Positions 12,444 to 61,415 of a DNA stretch of 64,000 bases are shown here, piece by piece. Source of the DNA: Bacteroidales bacterium (GTDB lineage Bacteria > Bacteroidota > Bacteroidia > Bacteroidales > P3); contig JAFSQF010000067.1 in assembly GCA_017446745.1 (NCBI GenBank), forward strand, positions 15,010-79,009. The letters are read 5' to 3'. Under the pieces are notes generated by a model. That model searched no databases and was not told the DNA's origin. It worked only from the letters and a program-made list of their open reading frames with translations. The translations under genes were made by a program, and so were the position numbers. Each line of letters starts with the position of its first letter. Position 1 is the first letter of the stretch.

Positions 12444-12566
12444 TGAGCCCCGTAGGTGTGAAGAAAGCTCCAGTGGAGCTTTCGATAGCGAAGCGGAGAA
12501 CTAAATATATTAGCCGTGGGCGCGAGCCCACGGGAATCGAAATACTCTATTAATCTGAGCCCCGTA
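12444..12566 (-). repeat. composite multi-hairpin intergenic repeat, copy A (inverted orientation)
   Basis: The reverse complement aligns to copies at 54458, 59507 and 61199. H1 hairpin CCGTGGGC-GCGA-GCCCACGG lies at 12514-12533. Confidence 0.85.
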
Positions 12567-18801: not shown

Positions 18802-18838
18802 AAAAAAATGTGGCTCCACAAGCGAGCCACATTTTTTT
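18802..18838 (+). terminator. rho-independent terminator
   Basis: ATGTGGCTC-loop-GAGCCACAT stem flanked by A7 and T7 runs. Confidence 0.65.
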
Positions 18839-18932
18839 GTAGTTACGCGACCGCAGAATGCGGTCGCCTCCCAGATTACAACCCTGACCGGCACGGCCGC
18901 AGGCGGGGACGCCCGCGTACCACGTCGCATTG
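18833..18932 (+). repeat. GTAG-hairpin REP-like repeat, copy 1
   Basis: TTTTTTGTAGTTAC-GCGACCGC-AGAAT-GCGGTCGC-CTCCCAG, then ACCGGCACGGCCGCAGGCGGGGACGCCCGCGTACCACGTCGCATTG. Repeated at 19069-19174. Confidence 0.85.
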
Positions 18933-19068
18933 TCAAACTAAAAGCTTCGCTACATGTAGGAGGTCGGGCTTCCCAGCCCGACCAATGGCAACCACAGGCA
19001 AGGAGCCCTTCGCATTCGGCGAAGGTGTAACTTTATTTTTCGGGGTACAACATTGGCTCGACAAAATC

Positions 19069-19174
19069 TTTTTTGTAGTTACGCGACCGCAGAATGCGGT
19101 CGCCTCCCAGTTATCGCCTACAGCCCTTACCGGCACGGCCGCAGGCGGGGACGCCCGCGTACCACGTCGCATTG
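19069..19174 (+). repeat. GTAG-hairpin REP-like repeat, copy 2
   Basis: Both conserved blocks are identical to copy 1; only the 12-18 nt linker differs. Confidence 0.85.
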
Positions 19175-19213
19175 GCAAAGCTATCGTTTTGATAGCGCGA
19201 TAAAGATGATGGG

Positions 19214-19252: not shown

Positions 19253-19326
19253 TGACTCCTGCAGGATTCAAACCTGCAACCTTCTGATCCGTAGTCAGAT
19301 GCTCTATTCAGTTGAGCTAAGGAGCC
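19253..19326 (-). tRNA. tRNA-Arg (anticodon ACG)
   Basis: Hand-folded 74-nt cloverleaf: acceptor GGCTCCT/AGGAGTC, D arm GCTC/GAGC, anticodon stem TCTGA/TCAGA with loop CTACGGA, T arm GCAGG-TTTGAAT-CCTGC, discriminator A. CCA is not encoded. Confidence 0.93.
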
Positions 19327-24196: not shown

Positions 24197-24256
24197 TTGT
24201 ATTTGTTGAAGTATTGGATTGTATGGGTGTAATCTCCCCTGGAGCAATTGTGAAAT

Positions 24257-24279
24257 ATGCCGCCCCGTGGGGGCGGCAT
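24257..24279. terminator. hairpin between convergent tgt and threonine aldolase genes
   Basis: 10-bp GC-rich stem ATGCCGCCCC / GGGGCGGCAT with a 3-nt loop. Confidence 0.55.
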
Positions 24280-28383: not shown

Positions 28384-28471
28384 TATGTCGCCCCTACGGG
28401 GCTCAATGTAACTGCCTGGTTTGTACCGTGGGCTTTCGCCCACGGCTAATATATGTCGCCCCTACGGGGCT
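28384..28471 (+). repeat. composite hairpin repeat, copy B (short form without module 2)
   Basis: ATGTCGCCCCTACGGGGCT flanks both sides of the H1 hairpin CCGTGGGC-TTTC-GCCCACGG-CTAATAT (28426-28445). Confidence 0.8.
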
Positions 28472-28964
28472 ACGACAAGAGGTTATTTAATTTTGAACAG
28501 TTACTTATGAGGCTGTCTGATGTTATGTCATGAGCAATGAATTAGATTTCATAATGCCTGTTATCTATTGTTTTAAACAGCCATATTGATACTTATACTT
28601 TTGACATAAGTAATTATTTTTCAGTGTATCATAATTCGTAATAACATTATTTTCAACAGTGATGACGTTCAAAAAAAAATGATAAAAAAAATGATATTTT
28701 AATTTGTTTTGAGAAAAAAAGTGTATATTTATAGGCCGTTTTTTGGTTAATGTGGCAATAATTTATTGTCATTAAAGAAATTTTATTTTTGTTACAATCT
28801 GCGGGCTAATGGAGGGCGTTTTCGGTTTACTGTTTTTTTATGAAACATGCAAATTTTTTTCACGAAAATTATCAAGAAAAATTGTTGGAAATTTGCAAAA
28901 CAATTTTGGTTCATAGAAGAACATTATAACGCATATATAATCATATTGAAACAACAAATACGCG

Positions 28965-30407
28965 ATGCAGAACTATAAAACTGTTTGGGCAAACTGCTTA
29001 AAGATTATCAAGGATAACCTTGGTCCCGAGAACATACAGGTTTTTCGGACCTGGTTTGAGCCTATTGTTCCTATCCAGTTGGAAAACAATGTGCTCACGA
29101 TACGCGTCCCTAGTCAGTTTTTTTACGAGTGGCTTGAAGAGCATTTCATAGACCTGCTAAAACGTACCATCAGGCTACAGCTGGGCCCCAACGGTATGTT
29201 GAAATACAGTATTCTTATGGACACCAGTATAGACGAGACCCCCATCACCACCGACCTGCCCTCGTCGGGGCGTCAAGCCACTGTTAACCGCCCTAAGAGT
29301 GTGCCCTTGAGAATGGCTCCGGAGGATGGACGAGAGATAGCCAATCCCTTCATCATCCCCGGCATACAGAAACTAAAAATCAACTCACAGCTCAATGGCA
29401 ACTATACGCTTGAGAATTTTGTTGAGGGCAGTTGTAACAGCCTGGCCCGTTCGGCCGGCTATGCTGTAGCGAAAAATCCGGGACGCACAAGCTTCAACCC
29501 GCTCTTGCTGCATGGCGGCGTGGGCTTGGGAAAGACCCATCTGGCACATGCCATAGGCATCAAAACAAAAGAGCTGCATCCCGACATGACGGTGCTTTAC
29601 GTCACCTCCGAGCAATTCTTACAGCAGTATGTGGAAGCTGTGAAAAATAAGAACACCAACGATTTCATTCATTTCTATCAGATTATAGATTTTCTGATTC
29701 TCGACGACATCCAGTTTTGGGCCAATAAAGGCATACATACCCAAGAGGCCTTCTTCCATATTTTCAACCATCTGCACCAGAACAACTGCCAGATAATAAT
29801 CACCAGCGACAAGGCACCTGCCGAGCTGGGCACCCTTGAGCCCCGTCTGCTTTCGCGCCTGAAATGGGGGCTTGCCGCTGACCTTGGCACCCCCGATGTG
29901 GAGACACGCAAAGCCATCCTGCATCAGAAATTGGCCAACGACGGCATAGAGATGCCTGAGGATGTGATAGATTATATAGCCTACAACATCAACACCAACG
30001 TGCGCGAACTGGAGGGAGCCCTGGTGTCGCTCATAGCGCAGTCGTCGCTCAACCATAGGCAGATAACCATAGACCTTGCCAAGCAGATGATTGACAAGTT
30101 TGTGAAAAGCAACACCAGGGAGATAACCATCGACTACATACAAAAGGTGGTGTGCGACTACTTCAACCTGCCAGTAGAGAGCATACAGTCGTCTACACGC
30201 AAACGCGAGATTGTGCAGGCGCGCCAGCTAACCATGTATTTCGCCAAGAAGCTGACCACCTCGTCGCTGGCCATCATCGGTCTGCACTGTGGCAACAAAG
30301 ACCATGCCACGGTGCTGCATGCCTGCAAAACGGTGGCGAACCTCAACGAGACCGACAAGCAGTTCCACAGCTGGGTTGACGACATAGAGAAGAAACTACG
30401 CGATTGA
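28965..30407 (+). CDS. dnaA: chromosomal replication initiator protein DnaA
   Basis: 480 aa. Walker A GGVGLGKTHL, box VII/sensor regions and the C-terminal DNA-binding helix (ARQLTMYFAKKLT...IGLHCGNKDHATVLHA). Confidence 0.96.
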   Translation: MQNYKTVWANCLKIIKDNLGPENIQVFRTWFEPIVPIQLENNVLTIRVPSQFFYEWLEEHFIDLLKRTIRLQLGPNGMLKYSILMDTSIDETPITTDLPSSGRQATVNRPKSVPLRMAPEDGREIANPFIIPGIQKLKINSQLNGNYTLENFVEGSCNSLARSAGYAVAKNPGRTSFNPLLLHGGVGLGKTHLAHAIGIKTKELHPDMTVLYVTSEQFLQQYVEAVKNKNTNDFIHFYQIIDFLILDDIQFWANKGIHTQEAFFHIFNHLHQNNCQIIITSDKAPAELGTLEPRLLSRLKWGLAADLGTPDVETRKAILHQKLANDGIEMPEDVIDYIAYNINTNVRELEGALVSLIAQSSLNHRQITIDLAKQMIDKFVKSNTREITIDYIQKVVCDYFNLPVESIQSSTRKREIVQARQLTMYFAKKLTTSSLAIIGLHCGNKDHATVLHACKTVANLNETDKQFHSWVDDIEKKLRD

Positions 30408-35734: not shown

Positions 35735-35784
35735 GATATTATATTTTGGGTTTTAGATTAGTGTCGTTATTTCGATGATTATTT

Positions 35785-35920
35785 TTCGATATCTCGATGT
35801 TTCGTGGTTTCGATGTTTCGTGGTTTCTATGTTTCGTGGTTTCGATGCTTCGATATTTCGATATTTCGATGCTTCGATATTTCGATGTTTCGAAGTTCCT
35901 ATGTTTCGAAGTCTCGAAGG
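35785..35920. repeat. 17 consecutive in-phase 8-bp units (consensus TTCGATGT)
   Basis: Hand-parsed units: TTCGATAT CTCGATGT TTCGTGGT TTCGATGT TTCGTGGT TTCTATGT TTCGTGGT TTCGATGC TTCGATAT TTCGATAT TTCGATGC TTCGATAT TTCGATGT TTCGAAGT TCCTATGT TTCGAAGT CTCGAAGG. No indels. Confidence 0.9.
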
Positions 35921-35927
35921 GAAAAAG

Positions 35928-36875
35928 TCATTTTACATTCCAGTCTTTCAGTTTGGTGACATTTATGGGGCTTATTTCTTTTATTATGGTGTATATCTCT
36001 TTCTGTTCTTCGGCGGGAGCCGGGGTGAAAATGGAAACGATCTCGTCGATTTTCATATCTAAAAATTGGGTGACGGAGAGCAGGTTGCTGCGTTTTTTAT
36101 GCACCTGTTGCAGGTATTTAAGGGCCTGCATGATGTTGGCGCGTGCTTGAGGCTGGTCTTTGGTCATCATGTCAAGGCCAAGGCGATAGTAATAATAATA
36201 GACGCTGTGCAAGGCTTCGTAGGCCGAGTTGGTGTGGTTTTCCATAAACCAGTAGCGTGCTTTTTGGCTGTCGCCGGAGCGCCATCCTTTATACTGGCTT
36301 CCTGCCATGCTGCTGACAGTTTGTTGGATGTTTTGTGCCATGTCGAAGAAAGGGGCGCCGCCGTTGGGGCCATAAGAGTCGAAATAGAGGCCCAGCATGA
36401 TGTAGCAGTAGTATGCCAGGGTCGATGAGAGGTTGTCGTAGAAACTGTTGGGGTCAAATTCCAGAGGCTGGCTTTCGTTGAACGAGAAGAGGAGGTCGTT
36501 GCTTCCCTCCATATAGTTGAAAAGGCCGGTGGTGTAGTTGGAGTTATACACCGGACGGCGTAGCTGGACAGAGATCTGGCCGCCGAAGTCGGTGGCCGTT
36601 GTTCGTTGTGAGAGAACGATAGTGATAGAGCAGTCGATGCGTTCCACCTGTTCAAACTCCAGGTTGGTCCAGTGACGGTTGTTGACGAAATCCTCCACGT
36701 CGCGTTTCATGGTCTCGAAGATCTTGATGTCGCCGGTCTCGTACTGTTGGGTAGTGCTTTGTAGTTTCTGATAATTAATGTTCACTCCGCAACGGAACTC
36801 CTGAGCCCGGGCAGAGATGAGGAAAAGGTTTAATATCAACAGCCACAATAATTTCTTCACAATCAATGACAGCAA
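35928..36875 (-). CDS. DUF4835-like (PorD-like) secreted protein
   Basis: Signal peptide, then AQEFRCGVNINYQKLQ...FVNNRHWTNLEF...ERIDCSITIVL. I recall this as the DUF4835 pattern. This is from memory only, not a search. Confidence 0.5.
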   Translation of the reverse strand: MLSLIVKKLLWLLILNLFLISARAQEFRCGVNINYQKLQSTTQQYETGDIKIFETMKRDVEDFVNNRHWTNLEFEQVERIDCSITIVLSQRTTATDFGGQISVQLRRPVYNSNYTTGLFNYMEGSNDLLFSFNESQPLEFDPNSFYDNLSSTLAYYCYIMLGLYFDSYGPNGGAPFFDMAQNIQQTVSSMAGSQYKGWRSGDSQKARYWFMENHTNSAYEALHSVYYYYYRLGLDMMTKDQPQARANIMQALKYLQQVHKKRSNLLSVTQFLDMKIDEIVSIFTPAPAEEQKEIYTIIKEISPINVTKLKDWNVK

Positions 36876-43703: not shown

Positions 43704-43735
43704 GGGTTGCAACAGTGTTGCAACATACGGAACGG
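43704..43735 (+). repeat. GTTGCAAC-type REP hairpin, upstream copy
   Basis: GGGTTGCAAC-AGT-GTTGCAAC-ATACGGAACGG. Confidence 0.85.
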
Positions 43736-43909
43736 AGGAAACAGCAAAAAAACAGAGCAAAAAAAACAGAGCAAAAAAAGCAAAAAAAAACAAAAACAGC
43801 AAAAAAACAGAGCAAACAGCAAAAAAAAGCTTAAAAAAAATCAAAAAGCTTAAAAAAAAATCAAAAAGCTTAAAAAAAATCAAAAAAAACTTAAAAAAAC
43901 AGCAGAAAG
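43736..43909 (+). repeat. A-rich low-complexity tract with internal 19-20-bp units
   Basis: Almost no T or G-runs on the + strand. AAAAAAACAGAGC occurs 3 times, and GCTTAAAAAAAATCAAAAA twice plus a degenerate third. Confidence 0.85.
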
Positions 43910-44959
43910 ATGGATTTGGAAACCTTCAAACGGCAAGAGGCCTTTGCCGGAGAGCTAAAGCCTTCAATGAAGCGCCGATGCGTGGCCCACGACTACAGCC
44001 AGCGAGGGATGTATATGGTGACGCTTGCCACAGAAGGGCGAAAGAAACTGTTTGGAATACTGACAGGGCGCAGCGAAGGCGTTCCCGGAGCTCCTGATGC
44101 ACCAGGGATAGCATTGACGGAACTGGGGAAAGAGGTGGAACGCTGTTGGAATGCAATACCTCATTACTATCCGGAGGTTAAGGTGATAGCACTTCAGATA
44201 ATGCCCGACCACATTCATGGCATAATTTTCGTAACACGCCGGATGGAGGGGAAAGACCTCGGGGATGTGATAAAAGGGTTTAAGGTGGGTTGCAACAAAG
44301 CCATGCGCAGGCTGGAGGGCGATGAATATGAGGTTGCATCAATGATGCAACATACGGAACGGCAAAAACATACGGGGCATGAGAGAGGGCTTGTTTTTGA
44401 GAGGGGCTACAACGATAGGCTCCTGCTTAGAGAGGGACAGCTGCAGCGATGGAAAGATTATCTGGCGGACAATCCACGCCGATTGTTGGCTAAACAAGAG
44501 CATCCGGATCTTTTCCGTGTGATTTTTGGCATTCACGTTGCCGAACAAAGTTTTGCGGCGATAGGGAACCGTTTTTTGCTCGACAGGCCCTATAAGCTGC
44601 AGGTGCAATGTTCGCGCAGCTTGACAGTTGCGGAAGTGGAACAAGAGAAGGAACGTTACCTGGCAGAGGCTCGGCAGGGGGCCGTGCTGGTGTCTCCGGC
44701 CATAAGTGAGGGGGAGAAAGCGGTGATGCGTGCGGCCCTCGAAGCCAGGATGCCATTGATATTCCTCTCGCCCAACAGCTTCACGCCATTCACAAAACCC
44801 GGAGGGGAGTACATAGAAGCCTGCTCACGAGGAGATTTTCTGATTCTTGCGCCATGGCCGGAGAGGAGGAACACGAAGGCCATAACGAGAGAAGAATGCC
44901 TGATGCTGAATAGGATGGCGAAGGAGATATGTGGTTGCAACGGTGTTGCAACATACTGA
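43910..44959 (+). CDS. REP-associated tyrosine transposase (RAYT)-like HUH/Y1 protein with about 150-aa C-terminal extension
   Basis: HDYSQRGMYMVTLAT..KLFG, HUH motif MPDHIHGIIF and Tyr motif WKDYLADNPRR, in canonical order. Flanked by cognate-looking hairpins. Confidence 0.75.
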   Translation: MDLETFKRQEAFAGELKPSMKRRCVAHDYSQRGMYMVTLATEGRKKLFGILTGRSEGVPGAPDAPGIALTELGKEVERCWNAIPHYYPEVKVIALQIMPDHIHGIIFVTRRMEGKDLGDVIKGFKVGCNKAMRRLEGDEYEVASMMQHTERQKHTGHERGLVFERGYNDRLLLREGQLQRWKDYLADNPRRLLAKQEHPDLFRVIFGIHVAEQSFAAIGNRFLLDRPYKLQVQCSRSLTVAEVEQEKERYLAEARQGAVLVSPAISEGEKAVMRAALEARMPLIFLSPNSFTPFTKPGGEYIEACSRGDFLILAPWPERRNTKAITREECLMLNRMAKEICGCNGVATY

Positions 44960-45032
44960 ACGGGGAGGGTTGCAACGGTGTTGCAACATACTGAACGAGG
45001 AGGGTTGCAACGGTGTTGCAACATACTGAACG
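44933..45032 (+). repeat. three head-to-tail GTTGCAAC-type REP hairpins, 35-bp period
   Basis: GGTTGCAAC-GGT-GTTGCAAC-ATACTGAACG at 44933, 44967 and 45002. The first copy contains the last 8 codons and the TGA of the RAYT-like ORF. Confidence 0.9.
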
Positions 45033-45325
45033 AAAAAGAGGGGCGGCGAAACAATAAAAAAAACAGAAGGACGTTAAATAGAAAAAAAACTAAAAAAGAG
45101 AAATAACGCAGGGAGGGGGGGGCACAGGAAAAAGAGAGAAAACGCAGGAAAAAGAAAAAAATGCTGGAAGAGAAAATAGACGCAGGAAAGAAAAAAAAAC
45201 ACTGAAAAAGAGAAAAAAAAACACAGAGAAGAGGGAAAAACGCTGAGAGAAAAAACACAGAAAAACAAACAGAAAAAAAACAGAGAAAACAAACAGTGAA
45301 AACAAAACAGAAAAAAGATAAAGAA
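45033..45325 (+). repeat. purine-rich (A/G) low-complexity tract
   Basis: 293 bp of AAAAAGAGA / AACGCAGGAAA / AAACACAGA-type words, with almost no T on the + strand. Ends at the LolA-like start codon. Confidence 0.85.
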
Positions 45326-54457: not shown

Positions 54458-54594
54458 TATGCCGCCCCTACGGGGCTCAGATAGGATAGGATATTTTCGA
54501 TTCCCGTGGGCTTGCGCCCACGGCTAATATATTTTGTTCTCCGCTTCGCTGTCGAAAGCTCCACTGGAGCTTTCTTCACCCCTACGGGGCTCAG
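54458..54594 (+). repeat. composite multi-hairpin repeat, copy C (full form)
   Basis: H0 GCCCC-TAC-GGGGC, H1 CCGTGGGC-TTGC-GCCCACGG (54504-54523), CTAATATA, module 2 with H2 GAAAGCTCCA-C-TGGAGCTTTC (54554-54574), and terminal CCTACGGGGCTCA. Confidence 0.9.
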
Positions 54595-57065: not shown

Positions 57066-59480
57066 ATGATAGACCAAGCAAACAACACCAATAGTGGAGC
57101 CCCGACGGTGCGGAAAAACACCAACCGTTTCATCATACACAACATCATAGAGCTGTTCATGTCGGCATGGTATTGGATAATAGTGTCGTTGGTGGTGTGC
57201 CTGCTGGCGGCATGGCTGTATTTGAAGATGAGTCCCGACGTGTATTCAGTGGCGGCGACCATACAGATCAACTCGCCCAATCAGCAGGTGAACCAAGACG
57301 TGATGAAAGCCTTCCGCACGCCGAGCAGTGCGGAGAAGGAGATCCACTTCTTCATGTCGCGTCAGGTGATAGACGACGTGGTGCGCGACCTGAACCTCAC
57401 GGTGACGTACATCCAGAGCCACCTATTCCGCGACGAGGACCTATACGACAAGTCGCCGATCGAGGCCTTTTTTGTCGACAACAACTATCCGGCCTGCAAT
57501 TTCATAGCCGAATGTCATACAGGGGGCTACACGCTGACCACCATCGAGACCGAGCGAGGTGTCAGCCCATTGAGCTGGAAGGCCAACTACGGCGACACCT
57601 TGGTGACTCCCAAAGGCGTGATAGTCATCAATAAGCGTCCGGGATACAGCAATCTTGACAAAGAGGAGGTGAAGATACAGTTCCGTCCGTTGAGCGAAGC
57701 CACGTCGATGTACATGGGGAAGATGAGTGCCTATATAGTGGACGAGGATGCCGGCAACATACGTCTGACAATGAACGAGGAGAACCTGAAGCGCGGCATC
57801 GACATCATCAACCTGTGGATAGAGTCGTACAACCGCCATACGGTGGACTACAAGAACCGTGTGGCGCAGAACACAGCCCAGTTTATAGAGGAGCGCCTTC
57901 AGGTTATCAGCCTTGAGCTCTCCGATGTTGAGGACGATTTGGAGAACTATATGCGACAGCACAATATCAGCGACATGAACACCGAGACGGGGAGCAACAT
58001 CACCAGCCGCAACCAGTACGCCCAGTCGCTGGTCGACGAGGAGGTAGCGGTGCGCATAGCCCGCGACCTTCAGAACCGCATCCTCGACGCGCGCCCCTTC
58101 ACCATCCTGCCCAATATATCGATCAACAACGGCAGCGTCAACCAGCTTATCAACGAATATAACCAATCGGTGCGCGAGCGTCAGGAGCTCATAGCCAACT
58201 CGAGTACCGGCAGCCCGCTGGTGGCGGAGAAGGAGTCGCAGATGGACGTGATGCGCACCACCATATTGCGCACGATAGACAACTACATCGAATCGTTGCA
58301 GATACGCATCCGCGAATACCGAAACCAGGAGATTCGCACCACCACGGCCATCAACATGGTACCCACACAGCGTCGCGAGATGCAGTCGTTCACGCGTCAG
58401 CAGTCAATCAAAGAGCAGCTGTACCTTTATCTGCTCAACAAGCGTGAAGAGAACGCGCTGAAGATGACCATCACCGAGGCCGACACCCGCGTGGTGGACT
58501 ATGCAGCCGGCGGCAAGATAGCGCCGGTTCCGTCGCGCACCTATTCCATAGCCTTCATCATAGGGTTGCTGATACCCATAGGCGTGGTGATGCTCATCAA
58601 ATGGCTCGACGTGCGCATCCGCAGCAAGAAAGATGTGGAGGCCTACTGCTCCATACCGGTGGCCGGCATCATCCCCATGGTTGAAGAGGGAGGCAGCCGC
58701 GTCATCACCAAGAGCGGCAAAGACCGTTTCAACGAGACTTTCCGCATCTTGCGCAACAACATACAGTTCATGTGCGGCCAGGTGGAGGGTGGCAAGGTGC
58801 TGATGATGACCTCCACGATGTCGGGCGATGGCAAGAGCCTGCTGGCCTACAACATAGCCCTGTCGTTCGCCTATGCCGGCGAGAAAGTGCTGCTGATAAA
58901 CAGCGACGTGCGTAAGCGCGAGACGTGGCATGGCACCAAGGAGAAATACCGTCACGGCTTGTCGACCTATCTTGCCAAACGCGACAACGACATCAACGAA
59001 CTCATTATGGACGACGAGATTTGCCCCGACCTGAAGGTGATACATAATGGTCCCATACCGCCTAACCCTGCCGAGATATTGATGAGCCACCGTTTCGACG
59101 AACTCGTGGCATGGGCACGGACACAGTACGACTACATAGTCATCGACAGCGTTCCTATCGACATCGTGGCCGATGCCACCATAGTGAACCGCCTGGTCGA
59201 CGCCACCTTCTTCGTCATTAAGGAGAAGACCTCCGACCGCCGCATACTGATGGAGCTGGAGGAATTCTACAAGACAGGTAAGCTCAAGAACATGAGCATT
59301 ATCCTCAACAGCTATAAGATACGCAAGCACAGCTATGGCTATGGCGGTTATGGCTACGGCTACGGTTACGGCTACGGCTATGGTTATGGCTACGGTTATG
59401 GGTATGGCTATGGTTACGGCGACGGCTATGGCGACAGCAAGACCGACGAGAGCGAGGTGCTGAAACCAGCCGACAAATGA
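57066..59480 (+). CDS. Wzc/GumC-type polysaccharide co-polymerase and BY-kinase with (GY)n tail
   Basis: Wzz-like N-terminus with TM helices. Walker A MSGDGKS, A' LLINSDVRKR and B YDYIVIDSVP. C-terminal tract with 15 Tyr. Confidence 0.9.
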   Translation: MIDQANNTNSGAPTVRKNTNRFIIHNIIELFMSAWYWIIVSLVVCLLAAWLYLKMSPDVYSVAATIQINSPNQQVNQDVMKAFRTPSSAEKEIHFFMSRQVIDDVVRDLNLTVTYIQSHLFRDEDLYDKSPIEAFFVDNNYPACNFIAECHTGGYTLTTIETERGVSPLSWKANYGDTLVTPKGVIVINKRPGYSNLDKEEVKIQFRPLSEATSMYMGKMSAYIVDEDAGNIRLTMNEENLKRGIDIINLWIESYNRHTVDYKNRVAQNTAQFIEERLQVISLELSDVEDDLENYMRQHNISDMNTETGSNITSRNQYAQSLVDEEVAVRIARDLQNRILDARPFTILPNISINNGSVNQLINEYNQSVRERQELIANSSTGSPLVAEKESQMDVMRTTILRTIDNYIESLQIRIREYRNQEIRTTTAINMVPTQRREMQSFTRQQSIKEQLYLYLLNKREENALKMTITEADTRVVDYAAGGKIAPVPSRTYSIAFIIGLLIPIGVVMLIKWLDVRIRSKKDVEAYCSIPVAGIIPMVEEGGSRVITKSGKDRFNETFRILRNNIQFMCGQVEGGKVLMMTSTMSGDGKSLLAYNIALSFAYAGEKVLLINSDVRKRETWHGTKEKYRHGLSTYLAKRDNDINELIMDDEICPDLKVIHNGPIPPNPAEILMSHRFDELVAWARTQYDYIVIDSVPIDIVADATIVNRLVDATFFVIKEKTSDRRILMELEEFYKTGKLKNMSIILNSYKIRKHSYGYGGYGYGYGYGYGYGYGYGYGYGYGYGDGYGDSKTDESEVLKPADK

Positions 59481-59506: not shown

Positions 59507-59644
59507 TGTGCCGCCCCTACGGGGCTCGAAATAAAGGGGTGGGGACGTTGTTTCCGTGGGTTTGCACCCACGGCTAATATATTTTTGTTCTACGCTTCGC
59601 TATCGAAAGAGCCACTGGCTCTTTCTTCACCCCTACGGGGCTCA
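59507..59644 (+). repeat. composite multi-hairpin repeat, copy D (full form, compensated stems)
   Basis: H1 CCGTGGGT-TTGC-ACCCACGG (59554-59573). H2 GAAAGAGCCA-C-TGGCTCTTTC (59605-59625). Confidence 0.9.
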
Positions 59645-59703
59645 GCGAGGAGCTGAAACCGGCAAACGAATGATGACTGACAGAAAAAAATAACTTAGGA
59701 TAG

Positions 59704-61198: not shown

Positions 61199-61415
61199 AT
61201 GTGCCGCCCCTACGGGGCTCTTGATTGAATAAAAAAAACGATAATGGTTCCGTGGGTTTACACCCACGGCTAATATATGCCGCCCCTACGGGGCTCTGAT
61301 TGAATAAAAAAAAGACGATAATGGTTCCGTGGGTTTACACCCACGGCTAATATGTTTTGTTCTCCGCTTCGCTATCGAAAGCTCCACAGGAGCTTTCTTC
61401 ACACCTACGGGGCTA
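61199..61415 (+). repeat. composite repeat, copy E: two tandem 76-77-bp H0-linker-H1 units plus module 2
   Basis: H1 CCGTGGGT-TTAC-ACCCACGG at 61250-61269 and 61327-61346. The linkers TGATTGAATAAAAAAAA(G)ACGATAATGGTT are near-identical. Confidence 0.9.

Follow-up and report, generated by a model that had tools for sequence, protein, structure and literature searches.

The Acido-Lenti-1 motif (Rfam RF01687) was described from Acidobacteria and Lentisphaerae and rated as a likely RNA (Weinberg et al. 2010, PMC2864571), and a 2026 preprint reports 'Acido-Lenti-1 ncRNAs' annotated near Tannerella protease genes, with speculation on a regulatory role and the statement that little is known of the function. 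Among the TnpA-Y1 proteins, Quentin et al. (2018) distinguished a 'subclass 1.2' of class 1, which is near the IS200 transposases, lacks the properties of insertion sequences (IS), has a low copy number, occurs mainly in Cyanobacteria and Bacteroidetes and is listed with 'REP: no', i.e. with no repetitive extragenic palindrome (REP). Di Nocera et al. (2013, PMC3733652) describe TIRtrons or TIRYTs, Y1 genes with long, sometimes double-palindromic inverted repeats that are also present elsewhere as singles, dimers or clusters, with Koribacter versatilis among the organisms included. The present work deals with a 64,000-nt stretch of a Bacteroidales bacterium (contig JAFSQF010000067.1, positions 15,010 to 79,009; hereafter the window), in which a modular family of hairpin repeats occupies five loci (A to E). 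The core of this repeat is the Acido-Lenti-1 motif, a curated Rfam family that was not recognised in the original prediction of the repeat from the sequence alone. The five loci are most likely satellites resembling REPs or bacterial interspersed mosaic elements (BIMEs), or 'solo arms', of a small HUH tyrosine (Y1) transposase with subclass 1.2 motifs that is encoded about 4.5 kb past the window. With rather less assurance, the balance of the data favours the wider reading that RF01687 is not an RNA gene but the missing cognate repeat of TnpA-Y1 subclass 1.2, forming a widespread REPtron-like system.

Repeat unit, Rfam core and associated Y1 genes

Inspection of the window sequence showed that the five loci, their common layout and the occurrence of a second module in four of them had been described correctly. 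The full layout is H0–linker–H1–CTAAT/CTAATAT tail–(44-nt module 2)–H0. A unit consists of a linker, hairpin H1 (8 bp), a conserved CTAAT-type tail and hairpin H0 (5 bp), usually with another H0 ahead, and has a period of about 75 nt; a generic arm can be written as H0-linker-H1-CTAATATATGCCG-H0. The H1 pattern CCGTGGGYNNNNRCCCACGG was matched six times in the window (0.07 expected by chance) and the H0 pattern GCCCCTACGGGGC, with up to 2 mismatches, 16 times (1.44 expected). Module 2 is sited between tail and H0 in copies A, C, D and E and is missing in copy B. Its hairpin H2, predicted as a 10-bp stem, actually has 9 bp and a loop of 3 nt. The RF01687 motif corresponds to the 46-nt H1-tail-H0 core, which shows the same build: a hairpin of 8 bp and a 4-nt loop, 12 nt of linker opening with CUA, a hairpin of 5 bp and a 3-nt loop, and then a U. 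Two window units passed the RF01687 gathering score of 37 bits (28426-28471 with 56 bits, 61250-61295 with 57.3 bits); the four units with module 2 scored 24.7-29.1 bits, below the threshold, because the 44-nt module splits H1 from H0.

About 95 kb of the window genome were examined in all. Look-up by the OmpA2 protein yielded two loci that are 100% identical to the window over an overlap of 3-4 kb (L190, L191) and a strain at 99.7-99.9% identity (L189). An identical 147-aa Y1 open reading frame (ORF) was present in all three, called as a Y1_Tnp gene in L189 and L190, at a window-equivalent position of about 68.5-69.0 kb and with the motifs KDHIHLL, FAWQDGYG and YIDNQEEHH. Its upstream flank carries, on the minus strand, H0-linker-H1(CCGTGGGTTTGCACCCACGG)-CTATCATATGCCG-H0, and its downstream flank, from 10 nt past the stop codon, H1-module 2-H0, then a tandem run of four to six 74-nt units and, at its end, one more unit that again contains module 2. 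Since the gene is flanked by units that include module 2, the window repeats are the flanking repeats of that gene. Nine repeat loci were found in the 95 kb, the gene-less ones outnumbering the gene about 7 to 1, with an enrichment around the Y1 gene, where about 15 kb hold 6 loci vs 3 in about 63 kb. The copies are not confined to one region; confinement by a local duplication had been named in the original prediction as a finding that would speak against it. The Y1 protein is 59% identical to that of L076, a Bacteroidales metagenome-assembled genome (MAG), in which the gene end runs directly into GTGCCG-CCCCTACGGGG-CTC, a 28-nt linker, H1-CTAAC and H0', so that its downstream side has the same layout. 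The closest other Y1 relatives (L195 and L197, 58-63% identity) carry one H0-linker-H1-tail-H0 arm per side, a minimal symmetric form.

A cognate Y1 gene inside the window was rejected, as no match at E < 1e-3 was obtained when nine Y1 proteins were compared with it by tblastn. The only HUH-like ORF of the window, 43910-44959 (+), was likewise rejected as a partner, owing to its Pfam Y1_Tnp E-value of 0.14 and a different hairpin family at its flanks. This ORF encodes 349 aa with the HUH-like motif 'PDHIHGIIF', and its hairpins (43705-43739 and 44933-45037) are formed by the repeat GGTTGCAACnGTGTTGCAACATAC(T/G)GAACG, with one copy upstream and three tandem 35-nt copies downstream; A-rich low-complexity tracts (43720-43906 and 45040-45320) enclose it. 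It is possibly a second, unrelated HUH/hairpin system. The original prediction, which regarded this ORF as resembling a REP-associated tyrosine transposase (RAYT), had stated that the repeats are not the hairpins flanking it. This is literally so, but the repeats do flank another, bona fide Y1_Tnp gene.

In the forward test, ORFs from about 100 motif-selected 8-kb loci were clustered. One protein family recurred across phyla, in 9 of these loci, with a length of 148-192 aa and Pfam Y1_Tnp E-values of 1e-18 to 1e-27 (L010, L076, L025). The family shows the motifs DH[IV]H, WQ and Y---Q--HH, and H54, H56, W94, Q95, Y114, Q118 and H122 are invariant in a seven-protein alignment (A1). Motifs and length (about 148 aa) of the associated proteins are the subclass 1.2 signature given in Table 1 of Quentin et al. 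(2018). Inverted H1 copies were located 37-138 nt from both gene ends in L010, L022 and L091, and no exact H1 copy was present within 1 kb of the Y1 gene in L008 and L018.

Alignment A1 retrieved at least 7,911 homologues. For the reverse test, 80 metagenome loci were taken by protein alone and scanned with a covariance model built from 29 published seeds, two window copies and three others (cut-off E <= 1e-3). The motif was present in 55 of the 80 loci. A copy was found within 300 nt upstream of the gene in 44 loci, downstream in 43 and on both sides in 33, with median gaps between gene and copy of 55 and 84 nt on the two sides. Of the copies nearest to the gene, 41 of 44 on the left were on the minus strand and 38 of 43 on the right were on the plus strand, i.e. 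the flanks are inverted and point outward. Motif density amounted to 2.38 per kb within 300 nt of the gene vs 0.041 per kb farther off, a 58-fold difference. Y1 flanks were also labelled as RF01687 by Rfam's own model at its gathering score, and one of the original L. araneosa seed regions of RF01687 abuts an ATG-started ORF that matches the N-terminal part of these proteins (hhalign probability 86%, E = 4.9e-6). Y1 homologues were mostly seen on 1-4 contigs, and a single Y1 gene was seen in the 95 kb of the window genome. In the literature searched, no paper was found in which RF01687 is connected with a transposase or subclass 1.2 with a repeat.

Species-representative genomes were scanned for the H1+CTAAT core CCGTGGGNNNNNNCCCACGGCTAAT. 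Among the matches listed, which give a lower bound, at least six phyla were represented, with Hormoscilla (Cyanobacteria), Sumerlaeia, Planctomycetota, Verrucomicrobiota, Acidobacteriota, Saprospiraceae and several Bacteroidales MAGs; many motif copies were seen in Hormoscilla and other MAGs. Judged by eye and uncounted, most copies aligned in register as a small lineage-specific hairpin, 20-30 nt, H1, CTAAT and the same small hairpin again, and tandem arrays of about 75 nt occurred in Bacteroidales MAGs. Tandem clustering, with spacings of 74, 110-115 and about 200 nt, is also visible in the Weinberg seed alignment. In a strict test, an identical H0 upstream of H1 was found in 14 of 83 copies (0.45 expected). 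As the upstream H0 is often another sequence, the two H0 copies may differ within a layout that is otherwise general. Module 2 was not found in about 180 loci of other organisms or in the sequences flanking the Y1 genes of L195 and L197, the closest relatives, and therefore appears to be specific to the window lineage.

Stem pairing, strain differences and individual loci

In a seed-based set (A2), 96.2% of cells were paired and 12 of 13 pairs showed double changes; the values for a set of 87 independent gene-flanking copies (A3) were 98.3% and 13 of 13. Shuffled and slid controls scored far lower in both sets, and both helices (8 bp and 5 bp) are supported by covariation across the family. 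Compensatory change that maintains pairing, as in the original prediction, is supported across the family. The tag GCTA(A/T) 3' of H1 (in reverse complement, TAGC-hairpin) is conserved as well, with G20 and T22 invariant and C21 present in at least 90% of A2. Inside the window, H1 position 8 is C:G at 12514, 28426 and 54504 and T:A at 59554, 61250 and 61327, and H2 shows a two-base swap on both arms (GAAAGAGCC/GGCTCTTTC) at 59605-59625, the one clean two-pair swap among six H2 copies of this species. The covariation within the window amounts to one or two independent events only. The H1 units at 61250 and 61327 are tandem duplicates of a single 77-nt unit and are therefore not independent. That no mismatched intermediate occurs is correct inside the window; just outside it, in the same strain and species, T.G is present at H1 position 8, and two H1 copies and one H2 copy (C.A) carry uncompensated mismatches. 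Selection on the folded structure, as originally argued, is consistent with the pairing across the family, but mismatched intermediates exist directly outside the window. Within this species the repeat appears young and turning over, and templated correction in quasi-palindromes could yield such swaps without selection.

G.U pairs were nearly absent (about 3 of 1,099 cells, ~0.3%). RNA helices usually carry G.U pairs, so that their near absence is atypical and, by this general argument, suggests that DNA hairpins, or both strands, are constrained rather than a transcript. The inverted copies, which lie on both strands around the gene, likewise favour constraint at the DNA level. A conserved A.C is found at H1 pair 4:17 in many Lentisphaera seeds of the Weinberg alignment (CCUAGC.../...GCCAGG). 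An A.C pair equals a G.T wobble on the complementary strand, which hints that the folding strand may be other than the one modelled by Rfam. Folded as single-stranded DNA, copy C forms four separate hairpins (H0, H1, H2 and H0'; z = -3.4). Long-range linker pairing around H1, seen in an RNA fold, was discarded because it is not conserved in the other copies.

The nearest other species share about 65% protein identity and a conserved gene order with the window species, and their spacers are too diverged to be aligned base by base, so that the comparison used spacer length and lack of the motif only. The dus–cvpA spacer has 13-31 nt in the relatives and 177 nt in the window species. The Wzz–OmpA1 spacer has 40 nt in three relatives, 184 nt in L183 and 223 nt in the window species, and the OmpA1–OmpA2 spacer 58-63 nt in the relatives and 291 nt in the window species. 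The spacer between Wzy and the glycosyltransferase GT2 has 0 nt in L186, 1,116 nt in L189, where it holds the Y1 gene and arrays, and 1,438 nt in the window strain (L190). Three of these four spacers are short in every relative, and no H1 or H0 was found anywhere in the syntenic loci of the compared relatives. The copies are inserted relative to the sister species. Presence/absence polymorphism, suggested for inspection by the original prediction, was found between strains: site E carries one unit in L182 and L189 (214-nt spacer) vs two in the window (291 nt), site D shows another arrangement in L182, and the two arrays flanking the Y1 gene show length differences of 148 and 174 nt. The change between strains is one of whole 74–77-nt units. 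Decayed repeat copies also exist. A separate tandem repeat with a 54-nt period, which is not an RF01687 element, was observed between glycosyltransferase genes (L189 13905-14096 vs L190 4336-4635, about 2.9 kb past the window), where the spacer has 216 nt vs 324 nt in the two strains.

As predicted, all copies are intergenic, judged by the window ORFs and Pfam, and lie between ORFs of clear Pfam identity; both orientations relative to the genes were observed. Five of the seven loci seen are in sense orientation directly past stop codons, and two are antisense to both neighbouring genes. Most copies begin 11-35 nt past a stop codon.

Copy A (12444..12566, minus strand) lies between argS and an acyl-ACP thioesterase gene, 15 nt past the argS stop codon and in sense. 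It is a single unit that carries module 2 and has lost part of its 5' H0, i.e. H0' 12447-12459, module 2 12458-12501 with H2 12463-12483, H1 12514-12533, linker 12534-12556 and an H0 remnant 12557-12566, and gave a covariance-model match of 29.4 bits at 12500-12533(-). Copy B (28384..28508, plus strand) is situated in the gcvH-dnaA spacer and consists of H0 28390-28402, linker A, H1 28426-28445, tail, H0 28458-28470 and linker B 28472-28508; in the covariance-model scan it scored 60.7 bits with model R1, in addition to the RF01687 match given above. That it extends to about 28508 is shown by a 135-nt paralogue with 96% identity (L001:893-1026, on the same contig past the window end, 36 kb away). 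The cumulative GC skew is lowest at about 16-20 kb and dnaA occupies 28965-30407, which may place the replication origin inside the window, with copy B next to dnaA. The motif strand is on the presumed lagging-strand template in 5 of 7 loci, a number too small to carry meaning.

Copy C (54458..54594, plus strand) is antisense to both of its neighbours, dus and cvpA, and contains H0 54464-54476, linker 54477-54503, H1 54504-54523, tail 54524-54535, module 2 54536-54579, H2 54554-54574 and H0' 54578-54590; its RF01687 score of 29.1 bits is under the threshold. Copy D (59507..59644, plus strand), between the genes of a Wzz-like kinase and an OmpA-like protein, contains H0 59513-59525, H1 59554-59573, module 2 59587-59630, H2 59605-59625 and H0' 59629-59641. 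It is bracketed by an imperfect direct duplication of about 30 nt of the 3' end of the upstream Wzz-like gene (59452-59480 GAGGTGCTGAAACCAGCCGACAAATGATGA, 59646-59676 GAGGAGCTGAAACCGGCAAACGAATGATGA), which might have arisen as a long target duplication or be the scar of a rearrangement; the second copy of this duplication is absent in strain L182. Upstream, at 59346-59441, GGTTATGGCTACGGC repeats code for the (G-Y)n C-terminal tail of an 804-aa Wzz/GNVR/AAA_31 protein. This tail resembles the tyrosine-rich tail of bacterial tyrosine kinases from capsule loci. Copy E (61199..61415, plus strand) is located between two OmpA-like genes and contains two tandem 77-nt units, with H0 61206-61218, H1 61250-61269, H0 61282-61294 and H1 61327-61346, followed by module 2 61359-61402, H2 61377-61397 and H0' 61401-61413.

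A perfect 10-bp palindrome at 24251..24279, ATATGCCGCCCC-GTG-GGGGCGGCAT (also given as ATGCCGCCCC-GTG-GGGGCGGCAT), is preceded by the family tail 'ATATGCCG' and lies between convergent tgt and beta-eliminating-lyase genes. Weak partial R1 matches were obtained on both strands (E = 0.34 and 0.87), so its membership is uncertain; either a solo tail+H0 or an unrelated hairpin resembling a bidirectional terminator may be present here. Two further repeats of the window are of other kinds. At 35749-35933, about 23 tandem 8-nt units (TTTCGATG / TTTCGTGG and variants) form a microsatellite-like array of ~185 nt. At 18836-19180, beside a tRNA gene (19253-19326, minus strand), a tandem duplication of ~242 nt, 95% identical over 61 nt, contains GC-rich hairpins such as GCGACCGCAGAATGCGGTCGC and GGCCGCAGGCGGGGACGCCCGCG and represents a repeat family unrelated to H0/H1.

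Proposed mechanism and rival explanations

Gene and repeat are associated in both directions of testing, the flanks are inverted and the number of units is polymorphic; that the Y1 enzyme recognises and mobilises the repeats is something we infer from related systems. By analogy with the TnpA of IS200/IS605 and with TnpA-REP, the enzyme would bind folded hairpins on transiently single-stranded DNA. It would read the conserved CTA that forms the foot of H1 (in reverse complement, TAG-hairpin, similar to the GTAG of classical REPs), and would cut and rejoin near this CTA, H0-bounded units being copied, lost or inserted at H0-like hairpins. Excision of linker-H1-tail-H0 segments and their insertion at H0 hairpins is plausible since the units are H0-bounded and the arrays vary by whole units. 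The stems would covary because an enzyme reading shape would co-evolve with its substrate, and effects on RNA, e.g. on 3'-UTR stability, would be secondary.

Several observations weigh against this interpretation. Cleavage, strand choice and target are all inferred; gene-less copies are single arms or direct tandem arrays and not inverted doublets (REPINs); Quentin et al. (2018) list no REP for subclass 1.2; the view of the genome covers only about 95 kb; and replication slippage or unequal recombination could change the number of units with no need of a transposase. A minority of loci, those of Hormoscilla and the L. araneosa seed region among them, have an upstream copy that points towards the gene. 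In addition, 25 of the 80 protein-chosen loci were without a match at E <= 1e-3, many of them Bacteroidales-like. In four rumen/gut Bacteroidales-like Y1 loci (L104, L105, L107, L110), the place of H1 is taken by a longer hairpin, GGCAGGGG...CC(A/G)CCTGCC, followed by TAAAT, which accounts for their poor score with an RF01687-type model; these loci retain H0-type hairpins (CCCCTACGGGG / TCCCTACGGGA).

The alternative that survives best, although unlikely, is an autonomous IS200-type insertion sequence with long structured inverted ends (a 'TIRtron'), the gene-less copies of which would be decaying solo ends or debris resembling miniature inverted-repeat transposable elements (MITEs) left by an active IS, in place of a domesticated partnership of the REP-RAYT kind. 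The protein does belong to class 1, near IS200 TnpA, the gene with its arms forms an insertion relative to L186, L195 and L197 present compact units with symmetric arms, and TIRtrons with repeated terminal inverted repeats are described by Di Nocera et al. (2013). However, IS200/IS605 ends are direct and on the same strand, whereas those observed here are inverted, and the subclass is described as low and divergent in copy number and as one that 'does not share IS properties'. The preponderance of gene-less loci over the gene in the ~95 kb, with tandem arrays and module variants, would also be unexpected for dead IS ends. The elements do not have the form of MITEs, as an identical H0 stands at both ends in direct orientation and short duplications were not found consistently, the one of ~30 nt at copy D, which is imperfect, being the only case.

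A structured small RNA, with transcribed copies whose hairpins are selected as RNA for regulation in trans or in cis, appears improbable. It would agree with the strong covariation of both helices, with the grading of the motif as likely RNA (Weinberg et al. 2010, PMC2864571), with the regulation of Tannerella proteases speculated upon in the 2026 preprint and with the sense position of five of seven loci directly past stop codons. Against this stand the inverted copies at Y1 genes, which place the motif on both strands, the two loci antisense to both neighbours, the whole-unit differences between strains with empty orthologous sites in the sister species, the near lack of G.U pairs and the existence of decayed and mismatched copies. 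No promoter or terminator signature was found in a pattern scan. Taken together, copies on both strands, few G.U pairs and the link to a transposase lean against an RNA function of the family.

That the repeats are terminators or protectors of mRNA 3' ends, selected by the host and spread by duplication with an incidental link to Y1, is the least credible explanation: most copies do begin shortly past a stop codon, and E. coli REPs stabilise upstream mRNA, but the hairpins are without a U-tract, both orientations occur, and the 58-fold enrichment at Y1 genes across phyla is not incidental. Intrinsic terminators were rejected by the pattern scan, which H1, H2 and the other H0 copies did not fit and H0 at 61206 fitted marginally. 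A CRISPR array was rejected because the linkers are near-identical between units and no cas genes are present in the window or in the gene-called loci.

Comparison with known systems

If both the REP-like reading of the window loci and that of RF01687 hold, an orphan RNA family and an orphan Y1 subclass would share one explanation. RF01687, which is propagated by annotation pipelines, would be reassigned to a transposase-tied DNA-level repeat, and a Y1 subclass reported without IS features and REPs would gain a candidate substrate. Partnerships of hairpin repeats and HUH proteins would be extended outside the Proteobacteria, in a form with two hairpins, direct tandems and an optional module. 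Most Y1 homologues were found on contigs shorter than 3 kb, which suggests that the arrays break metagenome assemblies, and the strain-level length polymorphisms in the capsule/polysaccharide locus could serve as strain markers.

BOX of Streptococcus pneumoniae (boxA-boxB(n)-boxC) is likewise a modular intergenic repeat, the middle module of which is optional and iterated, and stable hairpins are predicted for it. No cognate transposase is known for BOX, and the likeness is one of analogy only, with no relation in sequence. The published RF01687 seeds are also arranged in tandem, at spacings of 74-200 nt. In Rfam this family is typed 'Gene; sRNA', with function not known and a range of Acidobacteria and Lentisphaerae, whereas the copies described here are from Bacteroidales. 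The real unit is longer than the model by the upstream H0 and a linker of ~27 nt, four of the six window units contain the 44-nt module 2 as an insert, and, unlike in the Rfam description, the family is linked to a Y1 transposase gene.

The TIRtrons anticipated the concept of a Y1 gene with inverted hairpin repeats, as described by Di Nocera et al. (2013), who draw no link to RF01687 or to subclass 1.2. IS200/IS605 elements and their derivatives, the palindrome-associated transposable elements (PATEs), share the Y1_Tnp fold and motifs, subterminal DNA hairpins and a presumed single-stranded mechanism with the present system. They differ from it in that its ends are inverted and not direct, tnpB is missing, the gene copy number is probably low and gene-less units far outnumber the gene. 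NC_008009, a source of RF01687 seeds, is presumably the genome of Koribacter versatilis, the organism included among those with TIRtrons.

In organisation, the system resembles the REP/BIME-RAYT systems (REPtrons, REPINs) of Proteobacteria. Both consist of short intergenic hairpins in many copies with a short conserved tag at the hairpin foot, inverted repeats flank the cognate HUH-Y1 gene, clusters are mosaic and modular as in BIMEs, and the stems covary with the lineage. In contrast to RAYTs, the protein is not of class 2 (it has no Y..NP motif) but of class 1, subclass 1.2 (YIDNQEEHH). There is no GTAG at the 5' foot, the tag being CTA(A/T) 3' of the hairpin, the unit has two different hairpins, and gene-less copies are found without inverted doublets. 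Such a REPtron-like system would be very widespread: its proteins would number more than 7,900, and, among the matches listed, the exact H1 core occurs in Cyanobacteria, Planctomycetota, Verrucomicrobiota, Acidobacteriota, Bacteroidota and Sumerlaeia. As substrate it would use a unit of two hairpins and ~75 nt, multiplying in direct tandem arrays with H0 hairpins as borders. In evolutionary terms it would lie between the IS200 insertion sequences and classical REP-RAYT, the window lineage having recruited the 44-nt module.

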